From Escherichia coli (lineage in GTDB: Bacteria > Pseudomonadota > Gammaproteobacteria > Enterobacterales > Enterobacteriaceae), in assembly GCF_003018235.1 (NCBI RefSeq), contig NZ_CP027437.1: DNA of 64,000 bases; one strand, given 5' to 3'. Of the stretch, positions 1-50,689 are shown piece after piece (position 1 is the first letter of the stretch; each line of letters starts with the position of its first letter). Under the pieces are notes generated by a model. The model was not told where the DNA came from, did no database searches, and saw only the letters and a program-made list of their open reading frames with translations. Both the position numbers and the translations under genes were made by a program.

Positions 1-306
1 TTATCCATCGGTGAGCAAATCACCATGCTGTTGATCCTGATGTTGACCTCGAAAGGAATGGCTGGCGTACCACGCGCCTCAATGGTGGTTATCGCCGCCA
101 CGCTCAACCAGTTCAATATTCCGGAAGCGGGGCTGATCTTGCTGATGGGCGTTGATCCGTTCCTTGATATGGGGCGTTCCGCGACAAACGTCATGAGCAA
201 CGCAATGGGCGCTGCGATGGTGAGTCGGTGGGAAGGCGAACATTTCGGCGAGGGTTGTCGGGGTAAAGCATTAAAACCCAATGAATCGAACGTTGCTCTG
301 CCCTGA
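1..306 (+). CDS. DAACS-family (DctA/GltP-like) dicarboxylate/amino-acid:cation symporter, C-terminal fragment; 5' end lies outside the window
   Basis: Frame 1 is open from position 1 to a stop at 304-306. The C-terminal sequence (…GVPRASMVVIAATLNQFNIPEAGLILLMGVDPFLDMGRSATNVMSNAMGAAMVSRWE) resembles the conserved C-terminal region of GltP/DctA-type symporters as I recall them. Confidence 0.6.
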   Translation, partial: LSIGEQITMLLILMLTSKGMAGVPRASMVVIAATLNQFNIPEAGLILLMGVDPFLDMGRSATNVMSNAMGAAMVSRWEGEHFGEGCRGKALKPNESNVALP

Positions 307-413
307 GGGGGATCTTAAGCAATCAGAAGCCAATGACTACGCATTTTTATAAGCCGGATCATGAAGTTAGACGGCAATTAAGTAACACTAACGTTTAAGG
401 TGAAAAGTGAAAT

Positions 414-1610
414 ATGTCCAAACCATTTATCTGGCAAGAACCGTTTCTACAAAATAAAGACGGTACAGAATATACATTAATTAGCGATCAACATATTACA
501 GTAACGGAATTAGACGGCGAAGAAGTGATAAAAATCGCTCCTGAAGCATTAACGCTGCTTGCCCGGCAGGCATTTTATGAAGCCTCTTTTTTCTTACGTT
601 CCGCTCATTTGCAACAGGTCGCCAGCATTCTTAACGATCCGCAGGCCAGTAGTAATGATAAATACGTTGCGTTGCAGTTATTACGTAATGCTGAAGTCTC
701 AGCAAAAGGGGTATTACCCAACTGTCAGGATACCGGCACCGCAACTATTGTTGCCAGTAAAGGGCAACAGATATGGACGGGAGGTAACGACGCTGAAGCC
801 TTAAGCAAAGGCATTTACAGTACTTTCCAGGAAAATAATCTGCGCTTTTCACAAAATGCGCCGCTGGATATGTATACCGAAGTCAATACGCAAACCAATC
901 TCCCGGCGCAGATTGATATCAGCGCTGTCGCTGGTAATGAGTACCATTTTCTCTGTGTTAATAAAGGGGGCGGCTCCGCCAATAAAGCCGCACTTTATCA
1001 GGAAACCAAATCCTTATTGCAACCAGAAAAACTGACCGCATTTTTAATCGAAAAAATGAAATCGCTGGGCACCGCTGCCTGCCCGCCTTACCACATCGCC
1101 TTTGTCGTCGGAGGGCTTTCAGCCGATCAAACCTTAAAAGTTGCCAAGCTGGCCTCTACGAAATATTACGACAATTTGCCCACCAGCGGAAACGAGCAGG
1201 GACAAGCATTCCGTGATATTGAGCTGGAAAAAGTGTTGCTCGAGGTCAGTCAGCAATTTGGTATTGGTGCGCAATTTGGGGGTAAATATTTCGCTCATGA
1301 TATTCGCGTCATTCGTCTGCCGCGTCACGGTGGCTCTTGCCCGATAGCTATGGCGCTCTCCTGTTCTGCCGATCGCAATATCAAAGCAAAAATTAACAAG
1401 CACGGTATCTGGCTGGAAAAACTCGAACACAATCCGGGGCAATATATTCCAGCCTCACTGCGGGAAGAAAATCACGCGCAACATGTACAACTGGATCTAA
1501 ACCGTCCGTTGCGTGACGTGATGCAGGATCTCGCCAGATTACCGGTAGGCACCCGCGTGTCGTTAAGTGGTCCCATCGTAGTGGCACGCGATATCGCCAC
1601 GCCAAAATAA
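414..1610 (+). CDS. Class I (Fe-S) fumarate hydratase / L(+)-tartrate dehydratase family protein, N-terminal 398 aa; reading frame interrupted relative to full-length FumA-type enzymes
   Basis: 398-aa ORF whose sequence aligns, from memory, with FumA/TtdA. The C-terminal domain continues in the -1 frame (next feature). Confidence 0.75.
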
Positions 1611-1636
1611 AAGCGCGGCTGGATAACGCCGAACCG

Positions 1637-2065
1637 ATGCCGGATTACCTGAAGCATCATATTGTCTATTACGCTGGCTCGGCGAAAACACCGGAGAACA
1701 TGGCCTGCGGTTCACTGGGTCCAACCACGGGCGGTCGAATGGACGGTTATGTCGATACCTTCCAGGCGGCTGGCGGCAGTCTGGTGATGTTATCGAAAGG
1801 TAACCGCAGCCAGCAGGTCACCGATGCCTGTCACAAACATGGTGGCTTCAATCTGGGTAGTATTGGCGGTGCAGCTGCGTTACTGGCGCAAGAATATGTC
1901 AAAAGTCTGCGTTGCCTGGAATACCCGGAGCTGGGTATGGAAGCGGTGTGGATGATGGAAGTGGAAAATCTGCCCGCATTCATCCTGGTAGATGATAAAG
2001 GCAATAATTTCTTTAGTCAGTTTGAGCAGCAACACCGCTGCGCCAGTTGCCCTGCGGGACATTAA
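1637..2065 (+). CDS. Class I fumarate hydratase family, C-terminal (beta-type) domain fragment; probable continuation of the 414-1610 ORF after a frameshift
   Basis: 142-aa ORF ([12 protein letters not shown]…[12 protein letters not shown]…[12 protein letters not shown]) matching my recollection of the FumA C-terminal domain. The same frame read upstream (…[21 protein letters not shown]) matches the FumA linker. Confidence 0.7.
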
Positions 2066-2074
2066 GGAAAATGA

Positions 2075-2677
2075 ATGGAAGCGCGAATTTCAACTGAACG
2101 GCATGTGCAGCGCCAGCAGAAATTGAAGGAACAGGTCGATACGCGCATCGCGGCGGCGATAGAGAAAAAAGGGATTTTGATTGTTTTCACCGGCAATGGC
2201 AAAGGGAAATCCACTGCCGCGTTTGGTACTGTGACGCGCGCGGTGGGTCATGGCAAAACGGTGGGGGTTGCGCAGTACATCAAGGGGCAATGGGACAACG
2301 GCGAATACAACCTTCTCCAGCCGCTGGGGGTTGAGTTTCATATTATGGGAACCGGTTTTACCTGGGAGACACAGAACCGGCAAGCGGATATCGACGCGGC
2401 GAAAGAGGTCTGGTCGGAAAGCAAACGGATGCTGGCTGACAAGCGTTACGACTTAGTGGTGCTTGATGAGCTGACCTATATGCTGGCTTACCATTATCTG
2501 GATACCGAAGAAGTGATCGCTTCTCTGCAAAACCGCCCGGCACAACAAAGTGTCATTGTCACCGGACGCGGTTGCCACAGTCAGATATTAAAAATGGCGG
2601 ATACGGTCAGCGAAATCCGCCCCGTCAAACATGCTTTTGATAACGGCATTCAGGCCCAGCCGGGTATCGACTGGTAA
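2075..2677 (+). CDS. Cob(I)yrinic acid a,c-diamide / cob(I)alamin adenosyltransferase family protein (CobA/CobO/BtuR-like P-loop ATPase), a paralog rather than btuR itself
   Basis: 200-aa ORF with a P-loop (IVFTGNGKGKSTAAFG) and overall similarity to BtuR as recalled (…VLDELTYM…VIVTGRG…VSEIRPVKHAF). RBS AAGGA lies 6 nt upstream and the start is 10 nt past the fumarase stop, so the genes look co-transcribed. Confidence 0.75.
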   Translation: MEARISTERHVQRQQKLKEQVDTRIAAAIEKKGILIVFTGNGKGKSTAAFGTVTRAVGHGKTVGVAQYIKGQWDNGEYNLLQPLGVEFHIMGTGFTWETQNRQADIDAAKEVWSESKRMLADKRYDLVVLDELTYMLAYHYLDTEEVIASLQNRPAQQSVIVTGRGCHSQILKMADTVSEIRPVKHAFDNGIQAQPGIDW

Positions 2678-2680
2678 TAA

Positions 2681-2713
2681 CTGCGCCTGGCATCCCGCCA
2701 GGCGCAGGTTTTA
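2681..2713. terminator. Probable bidirectional intrinsic terminator between the convergent CobA-like and LysR genes
   Basis: Perfect 11-bp inverted repeat ctgcgcctggc / gccaggcgcag with a 5-nt loop (2681-2707), followed by gtttta. Confidence 0.5.
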
Positions 2714-3616
2714 CATCTCCTGCGGTACAACCGATTTCGCCAGCAACCATTCACGAAATTGCTGCAAGTGCGGTGAGTCAGACTTCTCTTCCTGCCACGT
2801 CATAATAAAACGATTACCGGTACGAATAGGCACATCACAGGGGATCACCATATCGCCACTATCCAAATCATGTTGAATAGCGAAACGTGGTAACAGCGCC
2901 ACGCCGAGATTAGAGCGCACGGCGGCAATCAGCATTGAAAGCAAATCGAAACGTGGTCCGTTGTTGACCAGCGGACTGCTAACGCCAGATAAGGCAAACC
3001 ACTCTTCCCAGCCAGTAATACGGGTACTTTGATGCAGAAGTGGTAACTCTGTAAGCAGTTCTGCCACTGACAGTTTTTGATCGGACATTGCAAGCAAACT
3101 GCCGCTGCATACCGGCAAAATCTCCTCATCAAAGAGATATTCTACTTCCGCCCAGGGCGCGCAAAAATTTTCGCGCATAATGACAGCATCGTACTCCCGA
3201 TTAAGAAAATCGCCGTTATTAGCTAAAGAGTGAATATTAACAATAATATCGGGATGTAACTTTGTGAATTCATGTAAATTTGGGATTAACCAGTGGGTAC
3301 TAAACGTAGGATTCACGGCAAGTTCAATAACCTGAACCGTAGGCTGCCAGGTCATAATGGTATTGGTATCGCGTTCCAGCTTATTTAATGTTTCTTTTAC
3401 TATCCCCAGGTAATACTTCCCTGCATCATTAAGAAAAATACGTTTTTTAGAGTGTGAAAATAACGGAGTATGTAAAAATTCCTCCAGCGCACTCACTTGT
3501 CTGAATACTGCACTTTGGGTCAACGCTAACTCCTCTGCCGCTTTGGTATAACTTTCATGACGTGCGACGACCTCAAAAGTCACCAGCAGCTCCGTTTTAG
3601 GTATTTTTCCTCGCAT
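2711..3616 (-). CDS. LysR-family transcriptional regulator
   Basis: 301-aa ORF with an N-terminal HTH (…YTKAAEELALTQSAVFRQVSALEEFL…) and LysR-type substrate-binding domain architecture. AT-rich upstream region at 3617-3900. Confidence 0.8.
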   Translation of the reverse strand: MRGKIPKTELLVTFEVVARHESYTKAAEELALTQSAVFRQVSALEEFLHTPLFSHSKKRIFLNDAGKYYLGIVKETLNKLERDTNTIMTWQPTVQVIELAVNPTFSTHWLIPNLHEFTKLHPDIIVNIHSLANNGDFLNREYDAVIMRENFCAPWAEVEYLFDEEILPVCSGSLLAMSDQKLSVAELLTELPLLHQSTRITGWEEWFALSGVSSPLVNNGPRFDLLSMLIAAVRSNLGVALLPRFAIQHDLDSGDMVIPCDVPIRTGNRFIMTWQEEKSDSPHLQQFREWLLAKSVVPQEM

Positions 3617-29947: not shown

Positions 29948-30856
29948 TACTGCTCCTGAGATATTAACAGGAGTAAGTGTAGACGTTGGGAAATGATGTT
30001 TGTGAAGTTAATCCTGTTGTAGCAGGGCAAAATTACGAAAGCACGCTCCCCGCAAGGACTGACGCCAGATAGTTTCTGTCCATGGCTGCCCTTTCCATTC
30101 AAACGTGAAATCAATAAGTTCATCAGGGACATCGCAAACAATATGAAGTCAGATTTCTTCTCTGCCGTGACTCTTTTCACTCATTGCGTAACTGTCATGC
30201 TCTGGATTATTTAATTCTTTCAGTGGAATTTTTTCCTCAAAGGCTTTATTTAGCCGCCCCTGATTTCCTTTTACAGCGAATAAATAATCACCTCCCTGTT
30301 TTTGTATCTTCTCTGCAATATCTTTCTGGCAACCCATCGCATCAGTTGTGATAATTTTTCCTTTAATATCCAACATGTTAAGAAGTTCAGGGGTAACTCT
30401 AATCTCATTGGATTTCTCATCCGTCTTGATCTGTCCGATGACCAGACTGTGCATTGTTCAGAACGCACTAATGACATGAATCGCTCCCCTGCGGCGACTC
30501 TTGTCATAAGAGTGCCGGAGCGTTTTTCCATCAATTGCAATGACGCCTTTATCATCTGAAGAATGGCAGTCACGCATCCAGTTAATAAAGCACTCGTGAA
30601 ATTTTGCAGGACTGATACAGGATACAACTCTGGCAATGGTATCGTGAACAGGAATACCATTTTCAAAATCACCATATTGTTTTAAAAAATCGAGATGTGT
30701 TTCCCCAAAATCCTCTATATCTTCCCAGCCTTCTGCACCAGAAATAACGGCACAAATAGTCAACAGTAGAATATCCGACAATTTATGTTCCACTTTCCAG
30801 GCTTGTCTGTAATCGGGAATAATAGAAATATGTTCCATCAGTTTTTTAAGTTCCAT
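29947..30856 (-). mobile_element. ISAs1-family (H-repeat-associated) transposase gene, disrupted (in-frame TGA at 30458-30460 and a downstream frameshift)
   Basis: Three consecutive minus-strand ORFs (30458-30856, 30149-30454, 29947-30180) which I recognise as pieces of an H-rpt/ISAs1-type transposase ([32 protein letters not shown]… / …[28 protein letters not shown]…). Confidence 0.75.
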
Positions 30857-31020
30857 TTTGTGCTCCTTAATTATGTAAGGAGTATTTGATCATGTATAAG
30901 CAATAAAAAACAGCTTCAGGTAATGAGGAATATCTCAATTTTTAAACATAAAATGCGAATTATTTAGCACAAAAAAGCAGCGTTACGTGATCTTTCCCTG
31001 GTGATAAACGAGAAATAAAT

Positions 31021-31053
31021 AAAAGGGGCGAGGCTGATTTCGCCCCCTTTTAT
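31021..31053. terminator. Probable intrinsic terminator downstream of the orphan immunity gene
   Basis: Hairpin aggggcga…tcgcccc flanked by A/T runs on both strands. Confidence 0.5.
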
Positions 31054-31056
31054 TAT

Positions 31057-31422
31057 TTAACAATATTTAACTTCATATTTCCCTATAATATCGAACACAT
31101 GGTCATAAGTACTGATAATTATGTGCTGAACTCCATCTCTTTGGATATCCTCTACTAAATCGAAACTTGATTTAGTATATTGTTCAAAAGGATAATCATC
31201 AACTTTGTATATAGATAACTTTTCAATTTTGCTAATAAAAAACTCGAGACTAATATCATAAGCATCTTTAATAGCAGGTTTGCAGGCAGACAACGATAAG
31301 GAAGCTTTGATGGTAAAGTTAAATGGATACAGATTTAACTCTGTCCCAGTTAAAATCAACGCATCTCGACCATATATTTGACCATATTTTGTTTCTAGTG
31401 CTTTTACAATCATATTAGCCAC
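31057..31422 (-). CDS. Putative immunity protein paired with the orphan Rhs C-terminal toxin
   Basis: 121-aa AT-rich ORF whose start (GTG 31422 or ATG 31413) abuts or overlaps the stop of the upstream orphan toxin frame, the usual toxin/immunity arrangement. No recognisable family. Confidence 0.55.
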   Translation of the reverse strand: MANMIVKALETKYGQIYGRDALILTGTELNLYPFNFTIKASLSLSACKPAIKDAYDISLEFFISKIEKLSIYKVDDYPFEQYTKSSFDLVEDIQRDGVQHIIISTYDHVFDIIGKYEVKYC

Positions 31423-31882
31423 AACCTCTTGTCCTCACTGTTCTGCCGCCATTTTGAGTTGAAAATCTTCGATCTAAATTAATTTTTGACAATTCCTCTG
31501 GAGTAGCCCATCTCGAAGGAATCTTCGATACACCGGCTGCTTTGGCAGCATAAAGTCGTCTGTTATCTAAAGTAAAGACTGAATCTTTATGAGCACCTTG
31601 TGATAACAATCTCTCTTGAACATTTACAGGTAAATCCCGCATTCTAACTTTTCTAATAGGTTCAACGTGATTTATATATGACGGGTCATTTATAAGTCTG
31701 TGAATAAGTCCATTAACATTTCTTCCGTCTTCAAAAACACCATTCATACTATCTTGTGAGAATAGAATTGTTTTAGGACTTACTGGTGATAATCCAAGAG
31801 GATCTATCCATGATAACGGGTTTGGAACATAACTATAGAGGTTTAATCCCCCCTCCAGCCCTATCGGGTCAGGATGCGCAAT
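31415..31882 (-). pseudogene. Orphan Rhs C-terminal toxin module (start-less fragment retaining only the DPxGL end of the Rhs core)
   Basis: Minus-strand frame reads …DPIGLEGGLNLYSYVPNPLSWIDPLGL followed by a ~125-aa unique domain (…MNGVFEDGRNVNGLIHRLIND…TLDNRRLYAAKAAGVSKIP…). The frame opens after a stop at 31883-31885 with no in-frame start until M at 31747. Confidence 0.7.
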
Positions 31883-32006
31883 CTACCTATCTGAACGATC
31901 GTACCATCAACTTCGTATATAAATTATCAAGACTGTAACGTCATAGCGCCATGACTTACTGTTATGATTTCATAAACAGGGAAGATATAATTCCTTACCC
32001 GATATA

Positions 32007-32435
32007 TTATTGGTGCTTCGATTTAAAAAACTCCCAATACTTTGGAGTATATCCTTTAAATGCTCTATGTTTCCCTTTTTCATAAGCTTTCAGGAAACAT
32101 TCGTAAGCCTCATCGTTTTCACCTAATTCTAGACAAACACCCCCTAAGTTAATCAGTTCAGATGTGGAATATAGTGGAATTTCACACTTAAAAATTTCAA
32201 CTGCCCAGTATTTTGCCTCATTATATTTTTTAAGGTCAAAATACACACCATAAATGCAACGAATCAACCATGCAGAAACTCCATCACCAAAAGAATATTT
32301 CGGCTCAGGTAAACTATCCCACAAAGAAAGATAAAGTTTTAAAGCACCATAGGCATCTCCTTGATCTTCAAGAACGTTACCATCTTCGATTTGCTTTACT
32401 ATGCTTTCTTCAAGCACTGGTCTGGTACTACTCAT
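32007..32435 (-). CDS. Putative cognate immunity protein for the main Rhs C-terminal toxin
   Basis: 142-aa AT-rich ORF 73 nt downstream of the Rhs stop on the same strand. No recognisable family. Confidence 0.55.
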   Translation of the reverse strand: MSSTRPVLEESIVKQIEDGNVLEDQGDAYGALKLYLSLWDSLPEPKYSFGDGVSAWLIRCIYGVYFDLKKYNEAKYWAVEIFKCEIPLYSTSELINLGGVCLELGENDEAYECFLKAYEKGKHRAFKGYTPKYWEFFKSKHQ

Positions 32436-32508
32436 TGCAAGCTACTCCATATGTATAAAATGAAAATTCACATAGTTCTAACTAGCTAATATATAACAAC
32501 CGATTTCT

Positions 32509-35500
32509 CTATTTTATGATTGGCGGTACAATTGGAGGTGTCACTGGTGGTAAGTATACTTGACCAAGTTTAGCCCCAGCAGAACGGTTAAGAGAATAAT
32601 GATCCAAATAATAATTTTTTGAATCCAGCATCCAATCCCTGACAGGTTTAGACTTCGGCCCCAAAAATCTACCAGTATTATTCCACCATGTAACGGCATC
32701 TGTCTTATGAGACATATCTGCTTCACTTAATGGATGCCAGACACCTTCAGAATCTTTAAACTCCATCCGGGAACCTGTCCCTCTAATTTTTCCATCATTT
32801 CTCATCCGAGCAATAACCTCACGGCCTGTTCGGCTATTCTTCCCTGGGGTTCTTCCTAAGAAATCACAACGTTTTGACAGCCCTAATGGGTCAATCCACC
32901 CCAGCGGATTAGGCGCATAAGCATACAGGTTCAGCCCGCCCGCCAGCCCTATCGGGTCCGTTACCATGAACCGCCCGACATCCGGATCATAGTACCTGTG
33001 CAGATTGTAATGCAGCCCCGTTTCCCTGTCGAGGTACTGTCCCTGGTAGCGCAGGTTCTGCTCCACCCCGCCGTGGTCCTTCTCCTGTATCGTGTTACCC
33101 CAGACCTGATACCCCGTCTCCCACACGATTTTCCCGTCGCTGTCCGTCATCTCTTCCGGCGCGCCGTTCACATCCGTGTGAAAATACAGTATCCGGTTCG
33201 GGCCCTCTTTACCCACCTTATCCACCCGCGCCAGCGGTTCATAACTCCCCGGGTCGCTGTAGATATACAGGCTGCTTATTCCCTCCGGCCTGCTCTCCTG
33301 CGCCAGCCGCATTCCGTCCCATAAAAATGTCGTCCGGTTGTACGGTTTACCGTCAGGGCTGATGTGCTGTTTTTCCGTCCGCCTCCCCAGCGCATCGTAC
33401 ACATACCGGTACGTTCCCCGCGCTGTCGTCACTTCCACCATCCGGTGTTCCGCATCATAACGGTAACTCTGCGTGCCGCTCCGGCCCTCCTTTTCCACCG
33501 CACGGCCAAATTCGTCGTAACGGTAGTGCACACCACGGTAAGACATCAGCCGGTTGAACGGCACCACGCTGTTTTCTGCCGTGGCCCTTTCCCCCGCGCG
33601 CCGCGCCAGCAGGTTTCCCGCCGCGTCGTACTCCCAGCTCGCCAGATACCCCTCATCCTCCGAGCGGCACGCCGTGATGCGCCCCGTGGGGTCGTAGAAG
33701 TAATCCGTTTCCCCCCGCCGGCTGTGCCGCGTCTTCAGCAGTTCATCCTCGCCGCTGTAGCTGTACTGCCGGTCCGTGAACGTCTCCGGTACCACCCCGC
33801 GCATCCCGCTGTATGTCTCCCTGCGCTTCAGCCGCCCGGCGGGGTCATAAAGCTGCCGCGTGCTCAGTCGCCCCTGACTTCTGAGCACTTCCCGGTGCAG
33901 GGCGTCACGTGTGAACTCGCTGATGACCTCCCGGTCCAGATTTATCTGCTGGAGATGGCCGCTGCCGTAGTACAGATGACGCTGCGTTCTGCCGTCCGGA
34001 AAGGAGGTGGCTGTCCGGTTGCTGAGTTCATCGTACTGATGGGTCAGGACGCCCTGCGCCGTCTCCTCAGTCAGCATCCGCCCCAGTCTGTCGTAACTGA
34101 AGCGGATAATCTCCGGTGCGTCCATTTCCCCGGCATCCGACCGTCGGCGGCGGATTTCCAGTAGCTGGTCTGCCGCATCATGGACGTATTCCGTACGGCT
34201 ATCGGCTGTCTCCTTTGCCGTGAGCCGGCCCGCCGCATCACGTGCCAGCCGGTGGCGGATTTCACCGCCCCGGTCCCCTGTGAACACCACTTCCGTGACC
34301 GCGTTCAGCACGTTGTAACGGTACGTCTGGCGGCAGCCGTCCGGATTTATCTGCTCCGCCAGACGGTCCAGCACATCATGGCGGAACCGGTAGTTTTCTC
34401 CGTTCTCGTTCGTGAGCGTGACCAGACGCCCGTAAGCATCGTACCCGAACGCCGTCCTGCGCCCCGTCGCGTCTGTCCGGCTGCGCACCCGGCCCTGCCC
34501 GTCCCGCTGCCAGCGCGTTATCCTCCCCATCGGGCTGGTGTACTTCACGAGCCTGCCCGCCGCGTCCGACTGGTAATTCACCGTGCGGCCGTCCGCCAGT
34601 ATCACCTCCGTCAGGTGGCCGCTGTCGTCATACCCGTAGCGCGTGCTGTGGCTCTGCGCGTCTGTCATCCGTATCAGCCGCGTGCGTTCGTCGTAGAACC
34701 AGGCCGTCTGCGAGCCGGAACAGTCCGTGTGCCGCATGAGCTGTCCGTCTTCGTTCCACTGAAGGTATTTATTCCCCCCGCGCGCATCCGTTATCTGCAC
34801 CACCTGACCGTGGCGGTCATACTGATACCGGGTGTTCTGCTGCAGCGGGTCGGTCACCGCAAGAAGATTGCCGCGTTCATCGTACTCACAGCACCAGCTG
34901 TTCCCCGCCGCGTCCACCTCCGTTTCCGGCTGGTGCCACACCGGGTGCCACTGTGTCTGTGCCACCCGCCCCAGCGGGTCGTGCGTCTCCGTGATATGCC
35001 CCTGCCGGTCATACACATAGCGCCATTTGCCGCCCTGCGCATCGGTCATTCCCAGTAACAGCCGTTCTTCGTCGCTCCAGCGGAACGTCGTCACCTGCCC
35101 GGCTTCGTCCTGGTACGCCGTCACCTGGTTCTGCGCGTCCCACTGATGATAACGCGTGCGCCCCAGCCCGTCCGTCACGCACAGCCTGCGTGCCGCGAGG
35201 CTCCACGCCAGCCGGTACTGTTCACCGCTGTCCGTGTGGTGCCCCGTCACCCGCCACGCTGCGTCATCCGGGCCTTCATACCAGCCCCACTGGTAATAAT
35301 ACCCTTCGCCGCCCGGCTGGCGGTGCAGGGTCATGCAGTGGTTTTCGTCGTAAGCAAACTCGCGCAGCAGGTGCCCCGTGCTGTCGTACACGCCGTTCAG
35401 GTCGCCGGCCTCGTCATAGCGGTAACGACGCAGCAGTAAAGGAGCCGTCTCAGGGAAATGCTGATAAATCTGTGTCACCCGCCGGGGATGCGCCGCCAGT

Positions 35501-37188
35501 TCATAATGCAGACGGATGCACGGACGCTGCTGTTCACCGCTGATTTGCGTGATGCGCCCCAGCTCGTCGTAGTACAGATTCAGACAGTTGCTGTTGCGGT
35601 CGCCCAGCATTTTCAGCCGCTGGTGCTGCGGGTGATGCGGGTCGGCTTCAAACAGAAAAAACTGCCCGTCATCGCTGCTGATAAGCCAGTGCCCCTGCTC
35701 ACCCCGCCGTACTGCCAGTCCTTCGCCGGGGCTGTAAAACCCGCTCCCCGGCAGCACAGCCTCCATATCCAGGCGTCGTCCCATGCCCGACACAAAGGTC
35801 ATACAGTTTTCGTCAGCAGTACCCGGCGTGCGCACGAGGCTGACTTCATACATCACGCTCCAGCCCTGCCCGAACATCCCTTCCGTGCGGTCGTCACGAC
35901 TGCTGTACACGCGCTGCCAGTCCAGCGGAAAGTGGCCCGGCAGACTGAAGTCAAAATCATCGTCATCGGCCAGATATTTGGCTCCGGTGGCGGCATTGAC
36001 CGGATGCGGAAGGGCACTGATGGCCTTCTGCGTCATCACCCCCATCCCGACACTGGCAGCAAAACAGGCGATTTTAGAAAGCATTTTGCCCGGGCGAAGA
36101 AACATCAGCGCCACGGTTGCCACCAGGGTTATCTGCGACCTGCCGCTTCTGATATCCCTGACCACCAGTAACGGACCGCCAATGCGGACATCCGGTGACA
36201 CAAACGCCCCGTTCCCCGGCTCATTCACCACCCTGGCCTCGCAGGTGCAGCGTGCCCCGCTGCGTGCCGCCGGCTGGCTGTTGATACGCACATCCCGCGC
36301 GCCTTCCGCGATATATTCCGCTGCGGGCGGTTCATCATCGCCTTTGAACAGATTACTGATGCTGCCAATAACCGCATTCACTCCCTGAAAGGCGGTTTCC
36401 AGCATACCGCCCGGACTCAGCAGGTTAAGGGCCGTTCCCAGGGGGTCATCCAGAAAGGCGGCTTTTTTTTGTGCGAGAAACTGCGTCAGTGAGGAGGGAT
36501 GTTTATGGCAGTCGATTTTATCGTCAGGGGTCGGGGTGGAGCCCGGGGCCGCACTGGCCACGGTGGGCTGCCATAGTTCCGACACAAAATGTGTCACGCC
36601 ATCCACCATTTCAGAACGCCCTTCTTCCGTACTGAGCTGGTCATGCAGCGCCCGGGACATCAGCACAGGCCCTGTCACCGGGTTAACCGCCAGGGCTATG
36701 GCCCCCGCCATTTCCAGATATTCCCCGGCCACATCCAGGAACGTTCTGGCGTCCTCCTGACGCTGCGCTTCTTCCTGTTCCGCCTTCGCCTGCGCCTCCT
36801 GCGCCTCAATGTCCTGCCGCGATGCCGCAGTCGCCGCGGCCCGCGCGGCAGGTTTGCTGTTGATCCATGTGTCGCCAGAGCCGGTGAGGATGTAACCTTC
36901 AATCTGAGGCGGGAAAAGCATATTTGCGAGGTCTGAACAGACTTCGCTGACCTTTTCTGTCACGCCGGTGTACACCATCGCCACACCCGCCACAAAACCG
37001 GTCAGCACGACGGCCGTGCACCCCATAGTGATCCCCGCTGACGTCGCCAGTAACGAGGTTGTGCCGACAATGAGGGCATCAATAACGACATTTGCGGCCA
37101 CCTCCAGCACCGCCCCCAGCACATCTGCCATAAACGACGTATGCAGCAGGGCATCACCCTGCCTTGCCGCCCAGAATGCCTCTTCCAT
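32509..37188 (-). CDS. Rhs-family polymorphic toxin with N-terminal prePAAR motif, transmembrane segments, PAAR-like motifs, YD-repeat core and variable C-terminal toxin domain (putative T6SS-delivered effector)
   Basis: 1559-aa ORF. N-terminus [16 protein letters not shown] matches AARxxDxxxH; hydrophobic stretches follow; PAAR-like motifs (…WINSKPAAR…, …[11 protein letters not shown]…); many YD repeats; core ends [27 protein letters not shown], then a ~120-aa tip. Core is very GC-rich, tip AT-rich. Confidence 0.85.
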   Translation of the reverse strand: [1559 protein letters not shown]

Positions 37189-37206
37189 GTCCCGTTCCCT
37201 GTGTGA

Positions 37207-37436
37207 TTAATTCGTCCCGGCTTCCTGCCGCATCCTGAAGCGCAGATTCTTTTTAATTTCAGCCCAGCGCGTCATATCTGCCGGGGTCAGCGGTGTGGTT
37301 CTGGCGTAGGTGAAGGCCATCATGACCCGCTCACCCGGCAATACAAATGCCACCTGACACTGGTACACCTGCTCGTTACCCCGGAGAAACTGGCTCTGTA
37401 TTTGCAAACCGCCTCATTGAGATAATATTCCGTCAT
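37207..37436 (-). pseudogene. Possible remnant of an Eag/DUF1795-like chaperone gene immediately upstream of rhs
   Basis: ATG at 37436 with an AGGA RBS gives MTEYYLNEAV… then terminates; the +1 frame continues as …QIQSQFLRGNEQVYQCQVAFVLPGERVMMAFTYARTTPLTPADMTRWAEIKKNLRFRMRQ, ending 19 nt before the rhs start. Family assignment is from memory and weak. Confidence 0.35.
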
Positions 37437-38190
37437 AATAGAAGTCGTCCTTTTTAATAAATGAATTATTTATTGACAGGTTCTGTTTTTTAATCATGAA
37501 TGTAATGTCTATCACCGCTTTACAGCACTCTTTATCTTTCAAGCGGTAATCACTAATAACATTAAGCAATTACCCATATTTACAATGACCGGAACTGATA
37601 TGCCGTTATGTATTTAACAATCCCAACATATTCACCATACCAATAAAATCACGAGTAACAAACACGCTACCGCCTCCATATAAAAAATGGACAGCTTATA
37701 AAATTGCATCTTGCATAGAAAGGGCTGAGATATCGAGTGTATTTTAATTATCAACTATAAATCTTGAATATTTTCATTAACAGAAACACATCTTATCCCA
37801 TTAGATATGTTAACAATCAATTATTCTTAACATATCACTAAAGTATATATTACTCTCTTTACTATCTGTTTTTATTGCGGTAGCGATATTAATAGCAAAA
37901 TTCGGAATTTATTTAGATGCTGGAATAAGAAAAAATGATGACGGCTTTCTTACCTTACCCTGAAGTTTCAGGAAAGTGTGTAAGGAAGGATGCAACCTAA
38001 CTGGAGATTTCTGAGGATCTAGTTGCTTAGAGCGACAATGAAGGTGAACGCATCCAGAGTAGTCCTATGAAAGGATACTATTGAAAATTGATGCTAAAAC
38101 AGTGATTAAATGAACAACACCATGGAACCCGTTGATTCAAAACGCCTAAACCAGCCCCCTGATACGAGGCTGGCTTAAACGCGCAGGCAA

Positions 38191-45801: not shown

Positions 45802-46475
45802 CAAACGTTCTGATTGTTGAAGATGAACAGGCTATTCGTCGCTTTCTGCGCACGGCGCTGGAGGGCGATAGGATGCGCGTCTTTGAGGCCGAAACGCTGC
45901 AACGCGGCTTGCTGGAAGCGGCTACCCGTAAGCCAGATTTGATTATTCTCGATCTCGGCCTGCCCGATGGTGATGGGATTGAGTTTATCCGCGACCTGCG
46001 CCAGTGGAGCGCAGTGCCGGTGATTGTGCTTTCCGCACGTAGCGAAGAGAGCGACAAAATCGCCGCGCTGGATGCCGGAGCGGATGATTATCTGAGTAAG
46101 CCGTTTGGCATTGGCGAATTGCAGGCCCGTCTGCGCGTCGCATTACGCCGCCACTCTGCCACCACCACGCCCGATCCGCTGGTGAAATTTTCCAATGTTA
46201 CCGTCGATTTAGCGGCTCGAGTGATCCATCGCGGTGAGGAAGAGGTGCATCTCACCCCGATTGAGTTCCGCCTGCTGGCGGTGTTGCTTAATAATGCGGG
46301 AAAAGTGCTCACCCAGCGCCAGCTCCTTAACCAGGTGTGGGGGCCAAACGCGGTCGAACACAGTCATTATTTGCGTATTTATATGGGGCATCTGCGACAA
46401 AAACTGGAACAGGATCCCGCCCGCCCACGCCATTTCATTACTGAAACCGGTATTGGGTATCGGTTTATGCTTTGA
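45798..46475 (+). CDS. kdpE: Response regulator KdpE (OmpR family)
   Basis: 225-aa ORF ([37 protein letters not shown]…). Confidence 0.95.
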   Translation: MTNVLIVEDEQAIRRFLRTALEGDRMRVFEAETLQRGLLEAATRKPDLIILDLGLPDGDGIEFIRDLRQWSAVPVIVLSARSEESDKIAALDAGADDYLSKPFGIGELQARLRVALRRHSATTTPDPLVKFSNVTVDLAARVIHRGEEEVHLTPIEFRLLAVLLNNAGKVLTQRQLLNQVWGPNAVEHSHYLRIYMGHLRQKLEQDPARPRHFITETGIGYRFML

Positions 46476-46749
46476 ATTGTTATTCAATAAATTCGCTTTA
46501 ATAGTGATTAATTTATTATTAAACCTGCTCCAAATATTATTATTTGGCAGGTTTAATTTCTTAACGCAAATATAAAACACGAAATTACAACATTTAAGTA
46601 ACAAAACAGCATCTAATATAGCAATATTCATAATTAATGATTTATTATCTGGGGTATGATCGTTTTTTTTTGATCTTCTTCACAGATTATAGCCATTTCA
46701 TGGATAGAATAACTCTACCTTCAACTGACACAGCAAGAGGTAAAGGTAA

Positions 46750-46854
46750 ATGGAAAATAATAACCGCTTAATGCCTCATATAAGGCGGACAACCCATATC
46801 ATGAAGTTTGCCCATCGTAATAGTTTTGACTTTCATTTCTTTAATGCCCGCTAG
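46750..46854 (+). CDS. speFL: speF leader / ornithine-sensing ribosome-arrest peptide
   Basis: 34-codon ORF MENNNRLMPHIRRTTHIMKFAHRNSFDFHFFNAR, ~310 nt upstream of speF. Not in the ORF track (below its length cutoff). The HIRRTTHIMKFAHRNSFDFHFFNAR portion matches SpeFL as I recall it. Confidence 0.75.
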   Translation: MENNNRLMPHIRRTTHIMKFAHRNSFDFHFFNAR

Positions 46855-47164
46855 TCTTCTGACTAAAGGGCACCCCAACGTACAGGTCTCCCTGACTTTA
46901 AGCATTACAGGTTAATACCTGTATCCTTCGGTGCTCATATACTGCTAACCCTTTTAAACTCTAAATAATTCGAGTCGCAGCACTTGCAACTTGAGGTATG
47001 ACGAGTATAGCCAGTTACCGGGCTGGTCTGGGTTATTGCATCTACAAAAAGCAAACTACTGATTTATTTATCAGCGGTGGGGTTTTGCTTTTTTTCCGGC
47101 GTGATCGATTTCTCCTTTGAGAAATTGAGGACCTGCTATTACCTGAAATAAAGAGATGAACAAA

Positions 47165-49363
47165 ATGTCAGAATTAAAAATTGCCGTTAGTCGTTCTTGC
47201 CCGGATTGTTTTTCAACTCATCGCACATGCGTGAATATTGACGAAAGTAATTATATTGACGTTGCCGCCATTATTTTATCGGTCAATGATGTGGAACGTG
47301 GAAAACTCGATGAAATAGACGCTACTGGCTATGGCATTCCTGTTTTTATTGCAACGGAAAATGAAGAACGTGTACCCGCAGAATATCTGCCACGTATTTC
47401 TGGTGTCTTCGAACATTGCGAATCACGTAAAGAGTTTTATGGACGTCAGTTAGAAACCGCTGCAAGCCATTATGAAACGCAACTGCGCCCGCCCTTCTTC
47501 CGCGCACTGGTCGATTATGTTAATCAGGGCAATAGTGCTTTTGACTGCCCTGGTCATCAGGGGGGTGAGTTTTTCCGTCGCCATCCGGCAGGCAATCAGT
47601 TCGTGGAATACTTTGGTGAGGCGCTGTTCCGTGCTGACTTGTGCAACGCCGACGTAGCGATGGGCGATCTGCTGATTCACGAAGGCGCGCCATGCATTGC
47701 ACAGCAACATGCGGCTAAAGTCTTTAATGCCGATAAAACCTATTTCGTTTTAAACGGTACTTCATCTTCTAATAAAGTGGTCTTAAACGCATTGCTGACG
47801 CCGGGCGATCTGGTGTTGTTTGACCGCAATAACCATAAATCTAACCACCACGGTGCGTTGCTACAGGCTGGCGCGACACCGGTTTATCTGGAAACCGCAC
47901 GTAACCCGTATGGTTTTATCGGTGGTATTGACGCTCACTGTTTTGAAGAAAGTTACCTGCGTGAGCTGATTATAGAAGTTGCACCGCAGCGGGCAAAAGA
48001 GGCTCGTCCTTTCCGCCTCGCCGTTATTCAGCTAGGCACTTACGACGGTACGATTTATAACGCCCGTCAGGTGGTGGATAAAATTGGTCATCTGTGTGAC
48101 TACATCCTCTTTGACTCCGCATGGGTCGGCTATGAGCAGTTTATCCCGATGATGGCGGACTGTTCACCACTGTTGCTGGATCTTAATGAGAACGATCCGG
48201 GTATTCTGGTTACGCAATCCGTACATAAACAGCAGGCTGGTTTTTCTCAAACTTCACAAATCCATAAAAAAGACAGCCACATCAAAGGGCAACAGCGTTA
48301 TGTACCGCACAAACGCATGAACAACGCCTTTATGATGCACGCCTCCACCAGCCCGTTCTATCCGCTGTTTGCCGCACTGGATATCAACGCCAAAATGCAT
48401 GAAGGTGTCAGCGGTCGTAATATGTGGATGGATTGTGTGGTAAATGGCATTAATGCCCGCAAACTGATCCTCGATAACTGTCAGCATATTCGTCCGTTCG
48501 TACCTGAACTGGTGGATGGTAAACCCTGGCAGTCGTATGAAACAGCGCAAATTGCGGTTGATCTGCGCTTCTTCCAGTTTGTACCAGGGGAACACTGGCA
48601 TTCTTTTGAAGGCTATGCAGAGAATCAATACTTTGTTGATCCGTGCAAACTGTTGCTGACAACCCCAGGTATTGATGCACGTAACGGCGAATATGAAGCG
48701 TTCGGTGTACCCGCGACGATTCTTGCTAATTTCCTGCGCGAAAATGGCGTAGTGCCGGAAAAATGCGATCTTAACTCCATCCTCTTCCTGCTGACTCCAG
48801 CAGAAGATATGGCCAAACTTCAGCAACTTGTTGCCCTGCTGGTACGCTTCGAAAAACTGCTGGAATCTGATGCGCCGCTGGCGGAAGTGCTACCTTCCAT
48901 CTACAAACAGCATGAAGAGCGCTACGCCGGTTATACGCTTCGTCAGTTGTGCCAGGAAATGCATGATTTGTATGCCCGCCACAACGTGAAACAACTGCAA
49001 AAAGAGATGTTCCGTAAGGAACACTTCCCACGCGTCAGCATGAATCCGCAAGAAGCTAACTACGCCTATTTACGCGGTGAAGTGGAGCTGGTTCGTCTGC
49101 CGGATGCAGAAGGCCGTATCGCTGCCGAAGGTGCGCTTCCTTATCCTCCGGGTGTGCTGTGTGTTGTTCCGGGTGAAATCTGGGGTGGTGCTGTTTTGCG
49201 TTACTTCAGCGCTCTGGAAGAAGGGATCAACCTGCTGCCAGGTTTTGCACCGGAGCTGCAGGGTGTCTATATCGAAGAACATGATGGTCGTAAGCAAGTT
49301 TGGTGCTATGTCATCAAGCCTCGTGATGCGCAAAGCACCCTGTTGAAAGGGGAAAAATTATGA
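47165..49363 (+). CDS. speF: Inducible ornithine decarboxylase
   Basis: Start at the ATG giving MSELKIAVS… (732 aa). Confidence 0.95.
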   Translation: MSELKIAVSRSCPDCFSTHRTCVNIDESNYIDVAAIILSVNDVERGKLDEIDATGYGIPVFIATENEERVPAEYLPRISGVFEHCESRKEFYGRQLETAASHYETQLRPPFFRALVDYVNQGNSAFDCPGHQGGEFFRRHPAGNQFVEYFGEALFRADLCNADVAMGDLLIHEGAPCIAQQHAAKVFNADKTYFVLNGTSSSNKVVLNALLTPGDLVLFDRNNHKSNHHGALLQAGATPVYLETARNPYGFIGGIDAHCFEESYLRELIIEVAPQRAKEARPFRLAVIQLGTYDGTIYNARQVVDKIGHLCDYILFDSAWVGYEQFIPMMADCSPLLLDLNENDPGILVTQSVHKQQAGFSQTSQIHKKDSHIKGQQRYVPHKRMNNAFMMHASTSPFYPLFAALDINAKMHEGVSGRNMWMDCVVNGINARKLILDNCQHIRPFVPELVDGKPWQSYETAQIAVDLRFFQFVPGEHWHSFEGYAENQYFVDPCKLLLTTPGIDARNGEYEAFGVPATILANFLRENGVVPEKCDLNSILFLLTPAEDMAKLQQLVALLVRFEKLLESDAPLAEVLPSIYKQHEERYAGYTLRQLCQEMHDLYARHNVKQLQKEMFRKEHFPRVSMNPQEANYAYLRGEVELVRLPDAEGRIAAEGALPYPPGVLCVVPGEIWGGAVLRYFSALEEGINLLPGFAPELQGVYIEEHDGRKQVWCYVIKPRDAQSTLLKGEKL

Positions 49364-50679
49364 GTCAGGCTAAATCGAACAAAATGGGCGTCGTTCAGTT
49401 AACCATACTGACGATGGTCAACATGATGGGCTCCGGTATCATCATGCTGCCGACAAAGCTTGCCGAAGTTGGGACAATTTCAATTATCTCCTGGCTGGTG
49501 ACAGCCGTAGGCTCAATGGCACTGGCATGGGCATTCGCAAAATGCGGTATGTTCAGCCGTAAATCAGGCGGTATGGGCGGTTATGCGGAGTATGCTTTCG
49601 GTAAATCCGGGAACTTTATGGCGAACTATACCTACGGCGTCTCACTGCTAATTGCTAACGTCGCGATTGCTATTTCGGCGGTTGGTTACGGCACCGAACT
49701 GCTCGGCGCGAGTTTGTCGCCAGTGCAGATTGGTCTTGCGACCATCGGGGTGCTGTGGATTTGTACCGTGGCTAACTTTGGTGGTGCGCGCATTACCGGG
49801 CAAATCAGTAGCATTACCGTGTGGGGGGTCATTATTCCGGTGGTAGGCCTGTGCGTTATCGGCTGGTTCTGGTTTAGCCCGACGCTTTACGTTGATTCCT
49901 GGAATCCGCATCATGCACCGTTCTTCAGTGCGGTAGGTTCTTCCATCGCTATGACGCTGTGGGCTTTTCTTGGTCTGGAGTCTGCGTGTGCGAATACTGA
50001 TGTAGTGGAAAACCCGGAACGTAATGTGCCAATCGCGGTACTCGGCGGTACGTTAGGTGCGGCGGTGATTTATATCGTCTCCACCAACGTGATTGCAGGG
50101 ATTGTGCCTAATATGGAGCTGGCAAATTCAACGGCACCATTTGGCCTGGCCTTCGCACAGATGTTCACGCCAGAAGTGGGTAAAGTCATTATGGCGCTGA
50201 TGGTGATGTCCTGCTGCGGTTCGCTGCTTGGCTGGCAGTTCACCATTGCCCAGGTGTTTAAATCTTCATCTGATGAAGGCTACTTCCCTAAAATTTTCTC
50301 CCGTGTAACCAAAGTGGATGCACCGGTGCAGGGAATGTTGACCATTGTGATTATCCAGAGCGGGTTGGCGCTGATGACGATTAGCCCGTCGCTAAACAGT
50401 CAGTTCAACGTGCTGGTTAACCTAGCCGTGGTGACCAATATCATTCCGTATATTCTGTCAATGGCGGCATTAGTCATTATTCAGAAGGTCGCTAATGTGC
50501 CCCCCTCAAAAGCGAAAGTTGCAAACTTTGTTGCTTTTGTTGGCGCGATGTACAGCTTTTATGCGCTGTACTCATCCGGGGAAGAAGCCATGCTATACGG
50601 TTCCATCGTGACCTTCCTCGGTTGGACACTGTATGGTCTGGTCTCACCACGCTTTGAACTGAAAAATAAACACGGTTAA
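49360..50679 (+). CDS. potE: Putrescine/ornithine antiporter
   Basis: 439-aa ORF; 4-nt overlap with the speF stop. Confidence 0.95.
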   Translation: MSQAKSNKMGVVQLTILTMVNMMGSGIIMLPTKLAEVGTISIISWLVTAVGSMALAWAFAKCGMFSRKSGGMGGYAEYAFGKSGNFMANYTYGVSLLIANVAIAISAVGYGTELLGASLSPVQIGLATIGVLWICTVANFGGARITGQISSITVWGVIIPVVGLCVIGWFWFSPTLYVDSWNPHHAPFFSAVGSSIAMTLWAFLGLESACANTDVVENPERNVPIAVLGGTLGAAVIYIVSTNVIAGIVPNMELANSTAPFGLAFAQMFTPEVGKVIMALMVMSCCGSLLGWQFTIAQVFKSSSDEGYFPKIFSRVTKVDAPVQGMLTIVIIQSGLALMTISPSLNSQFNVLVNLAVVTNIIPYILSMAALVIIQKVANVPPSKAKVANFVAFVGAMYSFYALYSSGEEAMLYGSIVTFLGWTLYGLVSPRFELKNKHG

Positions 50680-50689
50680 TTAAGCAAAG

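Follow-up and report, generated by a model that had tools for sequence, protein, structure and literature searches.

A recent one-base deletion very probably inactivated the accessory fumarase gene fumD in one Escherichia coli lineage

The fumD locus and its genomic island

The window, by which we mean the whole 64,000-nucleotide stretch of Escherichia coli DNA under analysis, begins on its plus strand with the 3' end of a gene encoding a GltP-like dicarboxylate/amino acid:cation symporter (1..306), which is truncated by the left window edge. An ORF was listed there at 25..306, the orthologous coding sequence is annotated in three of the related records, and the identity of the symporter is given by a Pfam SDF match in a contig belonging to the window's lineage. 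Next comes fumD (414..2065, plus strand), a class I (4Fe-4S) fumarate hydratase paralog of the mesaconase/fumarase type, which spans 1652 nt here versus 1653 nt in its intact form. It is divided into an N-terminal fragment ORF of 398 aa (414..1610) and a C-terminal remnant ORF of 142 aa (1637..2065) equivalent to FumD residues 409-550, both on the plus strand and both delimited from the ORF list and by Pfam and NCBIfam matches. An intact cobO gene, encoding cob(I)yrinic acid a,c-diamide adenosyltransferase, starts 9 nt past fumD on the same strand (2075..2677), and an intact gene for the LysR-family regulator of the island lies on the minus strand (2711..3616; ORF list and ortholog annotation). 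No promoter-like site was detected on the plus strand between positions 250 and 2750, a range in which an internal promoter serving the C-terminal ORF or cobO would lie, and the first notable terminator-like hairpin (plus strand, 2681..2707; 11 pairs, of which 9 are G-C) is located 3' of cobO. Since no plus-strand promoter was found inside fumD and the first hairpin occurs only after cobO, this gene is probably co-transcribed with fumD, and the premature fumD stop might, via polarity, lower cobO expression. An Rfam scan of the whole window returned zero families at gathering score.

The gene order of the island was read from the nearest complete genome and from a contig of the window's lineage. 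Beside sucD, it comprises glmS, glmL, glmE, the methylaspartate ammonia-lyase gene (mal), AtuA/DUF1446, DUF4387, the symporter, fumD, cobO, and a divergent LysR gene. In the same-lineage contig, matches to B12-binding, MutL, Met_asp_mut_E, MAAL, AtuA, DUF4387, SDF, two fumD fragments, and CobO were identified. This clustering of fumD with the glutamate mutase genes (glmS/glmE and glmL) and the methylaspartate ammonia-lyase gene agrees with the legend to Fig 5 of PMC4682846. When the lineage contig was compared with the reference genome, the products of glmS, glmL, glmE, mal, AtuA, DUF4387, the symporter gene, cobO, and the LysR gene all had full ortholog lengths, and fumD was the sole damaged gene of the island in the window's lineage.

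Both ORFs fit contiguous parts of a single NCBIfam equivalog model of 550 positions, NF011921, with the 398-aa ORF covering profile positions 1-396 (E = 1.6e-271, 901.6 bits) and the 142-aa ORF covering positions 409-550 (E = 8.9e-99, 331.5 bits), each scoring below the cut-off of 1060. Reconstruction of the gene by addition of one C yielded a protein of 550 aa that spans the profile from 1 to 550 with 1278 bits, above that cut-off. This fit of two ORFs to one model means that the resemblance to class I fumarate hydratases does not arise by chance, and the locus is a member of NF011921 (FumD-type) by descent, not an intact member. The sequence-only reading of this DNA had likened the motif at the break to FumA: the class I fumarate hydratase assignment held, but the gene proved to be the FumD paralog, as the reconstruction reached 921 bits on the FumA model NF011919, under its cut-off of 1105. 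The gene is thus fumD, which in E. coli O157:H7 encodes a fourth class I fumarase. Between the reconstructed protein and an O157:H7 copy there are 9 differences in 550 residues, and the copy of strain Z1323HEC0462 differs by a single one. The O157:H7 gene (ECs0757) is an ortholog occupying the same slot between the symporter gene and cobO and matching the same model, from which the window copy is set apart by the 1-bp deletion at codon 396 and by the substitution P423S; as encoded, the window copy cannot yield a 60-kDa enzyme of the O157:H7 FumD type. E. coli FumA and FumB share with it the fold, the order Fumerase plus Fumerase_C, and the motifs ARDIAH and YYAGPAKTP, whereas fumD is a separate paralog in a different genomic context.

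The fumarase homolog of the glutamate mutase/methylaspartase cluster was named FumD by Kronen & Berg 2015 (PLoS One, PMC4682846), who gave the frequency of the cluster among E. coli as 26.5%. They characterized the O157:H7 protein (ECs0757) as an oxygen-sensitive mesaconase/fumarase whose kcat/Km is 2x10^6 with mesaconate and 7.5x10^5 with fumarate, and reported that mesaconate hydration by FumA and FumB amounts to 4% and 19%, respectively, of their own kcat/Km for fumarate. According to the same work (PMC4682846), neither growth on glutamate nor expression of the island could be demonstrated in the laboratory, and what becomes of citramalate in E. coli is not known.

The deletion and its distribution

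Intact orthologs read ATCGCCCACGCC, whereas the window reads ATCGCCACGCC, with CC at 1597-1598 on the plus strand. Alignment to three intact E. coli orthologs (strains GF60, O157:H7 2571, and O7:H15 ST70) revealed a single gap in the window, GATATCG-CCACGCC versus GATATCGCCCACGCC, which is also present in the blastn gap list, and the base lost is one C of a CCC run. The codons GCC CAC GCC AAA ATA AAA are thereby turned into GCC ACG CCA AAA TAA, so that A395 is kept, H396T and A397P are introduced, and K398 is kept before the stop; in other words, T396-P397-K398 replaces H-A-K at the tail of the 398-aa ORF. The 550-codon gene terminates after codon 398 at the TAA created by the frameshift (1608..1610, plus strand; sequence and ORF list), and ten residues of FumD, 399-408, are encoded in neither ORF. 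The sequence-only reading had described a 398-aa ORF that ends in ARDIATPK at this TAA, a -1 frame that carries on the protein, and an ATG at 1637 opening the C-terminal part; the first is confirmed in the sequence and the ORF list, the second by translation from 1541, and the third does open the 142-aa ORF ending at 2065. Its placement of the missing C in atcgcc(c)acgcc was exact. The deletion probably arose by replication slippage in the CCC run.

A two-ORF layout shared by orthologs, which the same reading had proposed to look for, was not observed among those inspected: each has a single CDS of 1653 nt and 550 aa annotated as 'class I fumarate hydratase', and the frameshift stands. By megablast, the query of 2401 bases (window 300-2700) aligned to 2402 subject bases in every record listed, which indicates that there is no compensating indel.

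With this query, the fumD locus was detected in 1,121 of 5,426 complete RefSeq E. coli genomes (20.7%). A 46-mer centered on the deletion, which cannot seed on the CCC allele (the longest shared word is 24 bases, less than the 28 required by megablast), matched none of the 5,426, and the corresponding CCC 47-mer, used as a positive control, matched 1,074 of them. The control shows that the 46-mer test works and that the deletion allele is absent from the complete set. The 46-mer likewise had no exact match among the GTDB species representatives. Outside these collections, the exact 398-aa product was retrieved on 15-17 contigs and the exact 142-aa product on 18-20 contigs, which include one NCBI contig and Logan assemblies of public runs. 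Across 6.7 kb, the Logan contig of SRR2102939 matches the window with 100% identity, and the contig of SRR22548703, common to two samples, has the same deletion and one SNP in 12 kb. The deletion-bearing evidence examined thus comprises the two named runs and one further sample, 0-1 SNP apart, a spread at which the contigs could be one clone, possibly one strain sequenced repeatedly.

These assemblies bear on whether the strain truly carries CCC and an intact fumD, the deletion being an error of sequencing or assembly, as the sequence-only reading had allowed. A one-base change in a short homopolymer is a classic type of error, the window's genome is absent from the RefSeq complete set (where its best match is 99.1% over 25 kb), and the window has a second private 1-bp deletion, in ybgQ. 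The frameshifted ybgQ product was absent from other assemblies on exact look-up, in which the start codon chosen may differ from that of the gene caller. Nevertheless, runs of three bases are not error-prone on short-read platforms, the remaining indels of the window relative to its nearest relative, besides those in fumD and ybgQ, fall outside annotated coding sequences, and the allele or its products recur in assemblies of other runs (SRR2102939 and SRR22548703) and on 17-20 contigs. Since de novo assemblies of separate runs agree, an error confined to a single assembly is very unlikely, and we give an artefact next to no credence. The gene is broken where its orthologs are intact, and the break is no assembly artefact, as defines a frameshifted pseudogene; the deletion is recent and confined to this lineage.

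A second lesion was found downstream of the deletion, where a C>T change at 1679 (plus strand) makes residue 423 a serine (TCG). This residue is proline in 4 of 4 orthologs examined and in Leishmania major FH-2, within the motif YYAGPAKTP. A 57-mer centered on 1679 gave hits in 1,121 records, of which not one was an exact match, which makes P423S private to the lineage; the same substitution was evident in the ortholog alignment. Compared with GF60, which has the closest fumD allele, the window lineage has the deletion, P423S, and zero synonymous changes; the two also differ at residue 314, through a change confined to GF60.

Other lineages have damaged fumD in other ways. In strain XJ5.2, fumD is interrupted by IS1 and the symporter gene contains an internal stop, and two further, unrelated assemblies (one from SRR16777146, the other a metagenome contig of 3x coverage) share a different deletion, AAAA>AAA, 8 nt downstream and leading to the same TAA; this allele was found in 0 of 5,426 complete genomes. 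The proximity of the two deletions was considered as a sign of a mutational hotspot or phase-variable site, and this was rejected as a look-up artefact. Both assemblies were retrieved through the exact 142-aa ORF, which is called only if the break falls between GTG 1581, the last in-frame start codon before it, and ATG 1637; breaks farther upstream give longer calls, such as a 161-aa product beginning MARDIAH from another, more divergent sequence. The window copy resembles ordinary frameshift pseudogenes of E. coli accessory islands in combining a lineage-private 1-base deletion in a homopolymer with another damaging substitution, other lineages having broken fumD by IS1 or by a different deletion, and no feature sets it apart from them.

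Position of the break and fate of the two fragments

In intact FumD, the Pfam domains are Fumerase (residues 50-325) and Fumerase_C (residues 331-536). Of these, the 398-aa fragment retains the complete Fumerase domain and the first ~65 residues of Fumerase_C, covering positions 1-62 of the 205-position Fumerase_C profile, while the 142-aa ORF covers positions 76-204. The motif ARDIAH, which the sequence-only reading had taken for a linker, lies instead inside this catalytic domain, at about profile position 62 of 205. Structures of two-subunit relatives delimit the natural parts: the alpha chain 7xky_A aligns to FumD 53-325, and 7xky_B, 5dni_A, and 2isb_A, which are beta chains, match FumD 352-370 onward, starting at their own residue 9-10. 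On the beta-subunit models PRK06842 and PRK06043 (185 and 192 positions), the 142-aa ORF begins at about position 51, on TIGR00723 it begins at position 39 of 169, and the TtdB model PRK08228 aligns to this ORF only from model position 71. Because beta chains and models start upstream of ARDIAH, the motif belongs to the beta part and the cut in the window falls ~50 residues inside it.

The stretches VARDIAHAKIK and YYAGPAKTPE are conserved between L. major FH-2 (PDB 5l2r) and the E. coli enzyme, with VARDIAHAKIK and YYAGPAKTP identical in the two. In an alignment to 5l2r, whose chain numbers are 36 higher than the native ones, FumD C104, C223, and C309 align with C133, C252, and C346 of FH-2, which we take to be the ligands of the 4Fe-4S cluster. 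FumD R392 corresponds to FH-2 R421, and T438, T439, R442, and K462 to FH-2 T467, T468, R471, and K491, presumably all substrate-binding or active-site residues; a T467A variant in 6up9 is consistent with these assumed roles. The cluster cysteines and substrate-binding residues of a class I fumarate hydratase are therefore all found in the alignment, divided between the two ORFs. Taken together, the residue positions and the domain map indicate that the frameshift parts one active site within a single domain.

Two routes by which the locus could still provide a working enzyme were weighed against inactivation. One is that the 398-aa and 142-aa products form an active two-subunit enzyme, as do TtdA/TtdB or the clostridial MesA/MesB, a split into two polypeptides having been an option of the sequence-only reading. 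Two-subunit class I hydratases exist (PMC4682846; PDB 7xky A/B, 5dni, and 2isb), the ATG lies 27 nt past the stop, and the two pieces jointly keep all the residues assigned above to the active site of FH-2. The window fumD shares with TtdA/TtdB, MesA/MesB, and the archaeal FumA/FumB (7xky, 5dni, 2isb) the encoding of the enzyme in two adjacent ORFs, but those enzymes are split at the domain boundary (~330/345-360), with the natural alpha ending at about FumD 326-330 and the natural beta starting at about 343-361 with ARDxAH, whereas the window gene is cut at 396/409 with the loss of 10 residues. The 142-aa ORF consequently lacks the N-terminal part of a beta subunit, residues 396-397 are altered in the other fragment, no GGAG-like or otherwise evident Shine-Dalgarno sequence precedes ATG 1637, and P423S is an added damage. 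Neither a boundary split with a complete beta subunit nor an arrangement conserved among orthologs was observed, the two-ORF layout occurring in no ortholog of an intact lineage. A break inside a domain and away from the natural subunit boundary makes a functional split exceedingly improbable.

The other route is recoding, in which a -1 slip at the 'shifty stop' A_AAA_UAA (1604-1610) would restore a protein of the full 550 aa bearing H396T and A397P. At this site, tRNA-Lys could shift back by one base and pair perfectly with A AAA while the stop codon occupies the A site, and the product would be of normal length. Slippery runs beside stop codons are reported to leak (Weiss et al. 1987). Against this, the site reads G CCA AAA UAA, which is not a canonical heptamer of the X XXY YYZ type, the upstream sequence shows no SD-like stimulator, and folding of the following 90 nt gives a minimum free energy of -21.6 kcal/mol, equal to the shuffle mean of -21.6 (z = 0.00). 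Furthermore, AAAATAAAA consists of plain in-frame K-I-K codons in intact orthologs, which means that nothing here evolved for recoding; the heptamer and stimulator, conserved in orthologs, that characterize programmed -1 frameshifting were not found. The product would also lose the histidine of ARDIAH, conserved from E. coli to Leishmania, and retain P423S, and we regard recoding as scarcely believable. Overall, there is a slim chance that residual active enzyme is made, either by slippage at A_AAA_UAA (H396T/A397P/P423S) or if the 398-aa and 142-aa products complement each other non-covalently. If it were, the residual activity would be that of a natural class I Fe-S hydro-lyase tolerating a cut inside its C-terminal domain.

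Probable loss of fumD function and its selective context

It is highly probable that a recent, lineage-private 1-bp deletion inactivated fumD and left it a pseudogene. The recent pseudogenising mutation listed among the options of the sequence-only reading is the one that prevailed, with an allele found in none of the complete genomes, present in other runs, and causing a break inside a domain. In the mechanism that we propose, slippage in the CCC run would have led to the 1-bp deletion and translation would halt after codon 398. The resulting 398-aa product would keep the N-terminal domain, C104/C223/C309, and R392 and be left without residues 399-550, including T438, T439, R442, and K462, and the 142-aa ORF would be an incomplete piece of the C-terminal domain that is unlikely to be efficiently translated or to fold. 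Intact FumD is the accessory class I [4Fe-4S] hydratase of the glutamate mutase/methylaspartate island, converting mesaconate to (S)-citramalate, and from the sequence we infer that this activity has been lost in the lineage.

The loss appears to have been selectively neutral. The deletion is most likely tolerated, and a dispensable gene may have come under relaxed selection, given that mesaconate is also a substrate of FumA and FumB and that the island stays silent in laboratory culture, where growth on glutamate could not be shown either. The combination of an otherwise intact island with a private P423S in a conserved motif fits relaxed selection on fumD. Alternatively, inactivation of fumD could have been selected, for example through accumulation or export of mesaconate or by sparing a costly Fe-S enzyme. 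This would be in line with fumD alone being damaged among eight other intact island genes and with its independent breakage in other lineages. Yet FumA and FumB would go on hydrating mesaconate, the allele is limited to one near-clonal lineage, and the 1,121 complete genomes with the locus gave zero signal of frequency or convergence. In addition, the symporter gene of XJ5.2 is also a pseudogene, which looks like general decay, and the nearby alleles lacking one A are explained by look-up bias. Adaptive loss is therefore very unlikely, and neutral loss under relaxed selection is the reading that we retain.

The fumD of the window is very probably an ordinary pseudogene of a known, characterized gene; the practical consequences are small and no new biological question is raised. 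For annotation, the two ORFs are best recorded together as a single fumD pseudogene with a frameshift, and the label of 'fumarate hydratase' subunits should be avoided. The lineage keeps glutamate mutase, methylaspartase, and the adenosyltransferase but would be without a dedicated mesaconase, and any flux from glutamate to citramalate would rest on promiscuous FumA/FumB. Beside the IS1 insertion and the other 1-bp deletion, this locus adds one more case for the dispensability and repeated decay of fumD, a pattern in keeping with the published work, in which no conditions for expression of the island could be identified.

Decay of fumD in other lineages

The class I fumarase/mesaconase gene fumD was also found to be damaged outside the lineage of the window. 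An assembly from SRR16777146 (L009) carries a 1-bp deletion (AAAA>AAA, at 2969-2971 of that contig) located 8 nt downstream of the lesion in the window, and the same site is affected in L010, a metagenome contig of 3x coverage. This allele yields a product ending in ...ARDIAHAK* followed by a 142-aa remnant corresponding to that of the window, in which residue 423 is Pro in these contigs. It was absent from all 5,426 complete genomes searched. The frameshift shared by L009 and L010 arose separately from the fumD lesion of the window. In E. coli XJ5.2 (NZ_CP074354.1, 3153852-3157629), an IS1A element lies inside fumD and the adjoining symporter gene is annotated with an internal stop, which represents an independent decay of the island.

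Several short-read Logan contigs from other samples (L012-L014) start within fumD, at positions equivalent to 1597-1635 of the window. These starts probably derive from assembly graphs broken in mixed-strain samples by a cluster of SNPs at fumD codons 405-411 (N/S, A/G, and D/E).

Conserved AtuA/DUF1446 and DUF4387 genes

Genes encoding AtuA/DUF1446 and DUF4387 proteins are located upstream of the window (5545-7229 of L007, the contig of its own lineage), and all copies of the island have them at this place, flanked by the genes for methylaspartase and the symporter. The two proteins are candidates for the step that would consume (S)-citramalate in E. coli, the product of mesaconate hydration by FumD (PMC4682846).

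Lineage of the window and a frameshift in ybgQ

The best match to positions 1-25000 among RefSeq complete E. coli genomes had 99.1% identity over 25 kb. The lineage of the window is without a representative in that set, and none was found among the GTDB species representatives. Compared with the nearest genome, the window has a further 1-bp deletion at position 19133 (TCCCTCCCC to TCCC-CCCC), in the fimbrial usher gene ybgQ (16872-19211). It places approximately the last 26 codons out of frame, so that the gene ends at 19211 versus about 19331 in the nearest genome, and the product has 779 aa versus 819 aa. The 47-mer spanning this deletion had no match in complete E. coli genomes, in a search run without a positive control, and the exact shortened product is not on record among the proteins searched.

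Segments that differ from the nearest reference

An Rfam scan of the entire 64 kb returned no family at gathering score. The 8.2-kb segment at 29985-38187 is missing from the nearest reference, in which ybgA and ybfA adjoin. It encodes a 1559-aa Rhs protein (32509-37188, minus strand) with PAAR, DUF6531, RHS-repeat, and RHS core domains, followed downstream by small ORFs, one of them with weak TPR matches, and looks like an Rhs toxin/immunity element. In the nearest reference a hypothetical gene stands between kdpE and pgm, where the window has a 4.2-kb segment (46473-50687) with genes for an Orn/Lys/Arg decarboxylase of 735 aa and an amino-acid permease of 439 aa, a pair that looks like speF-potE.
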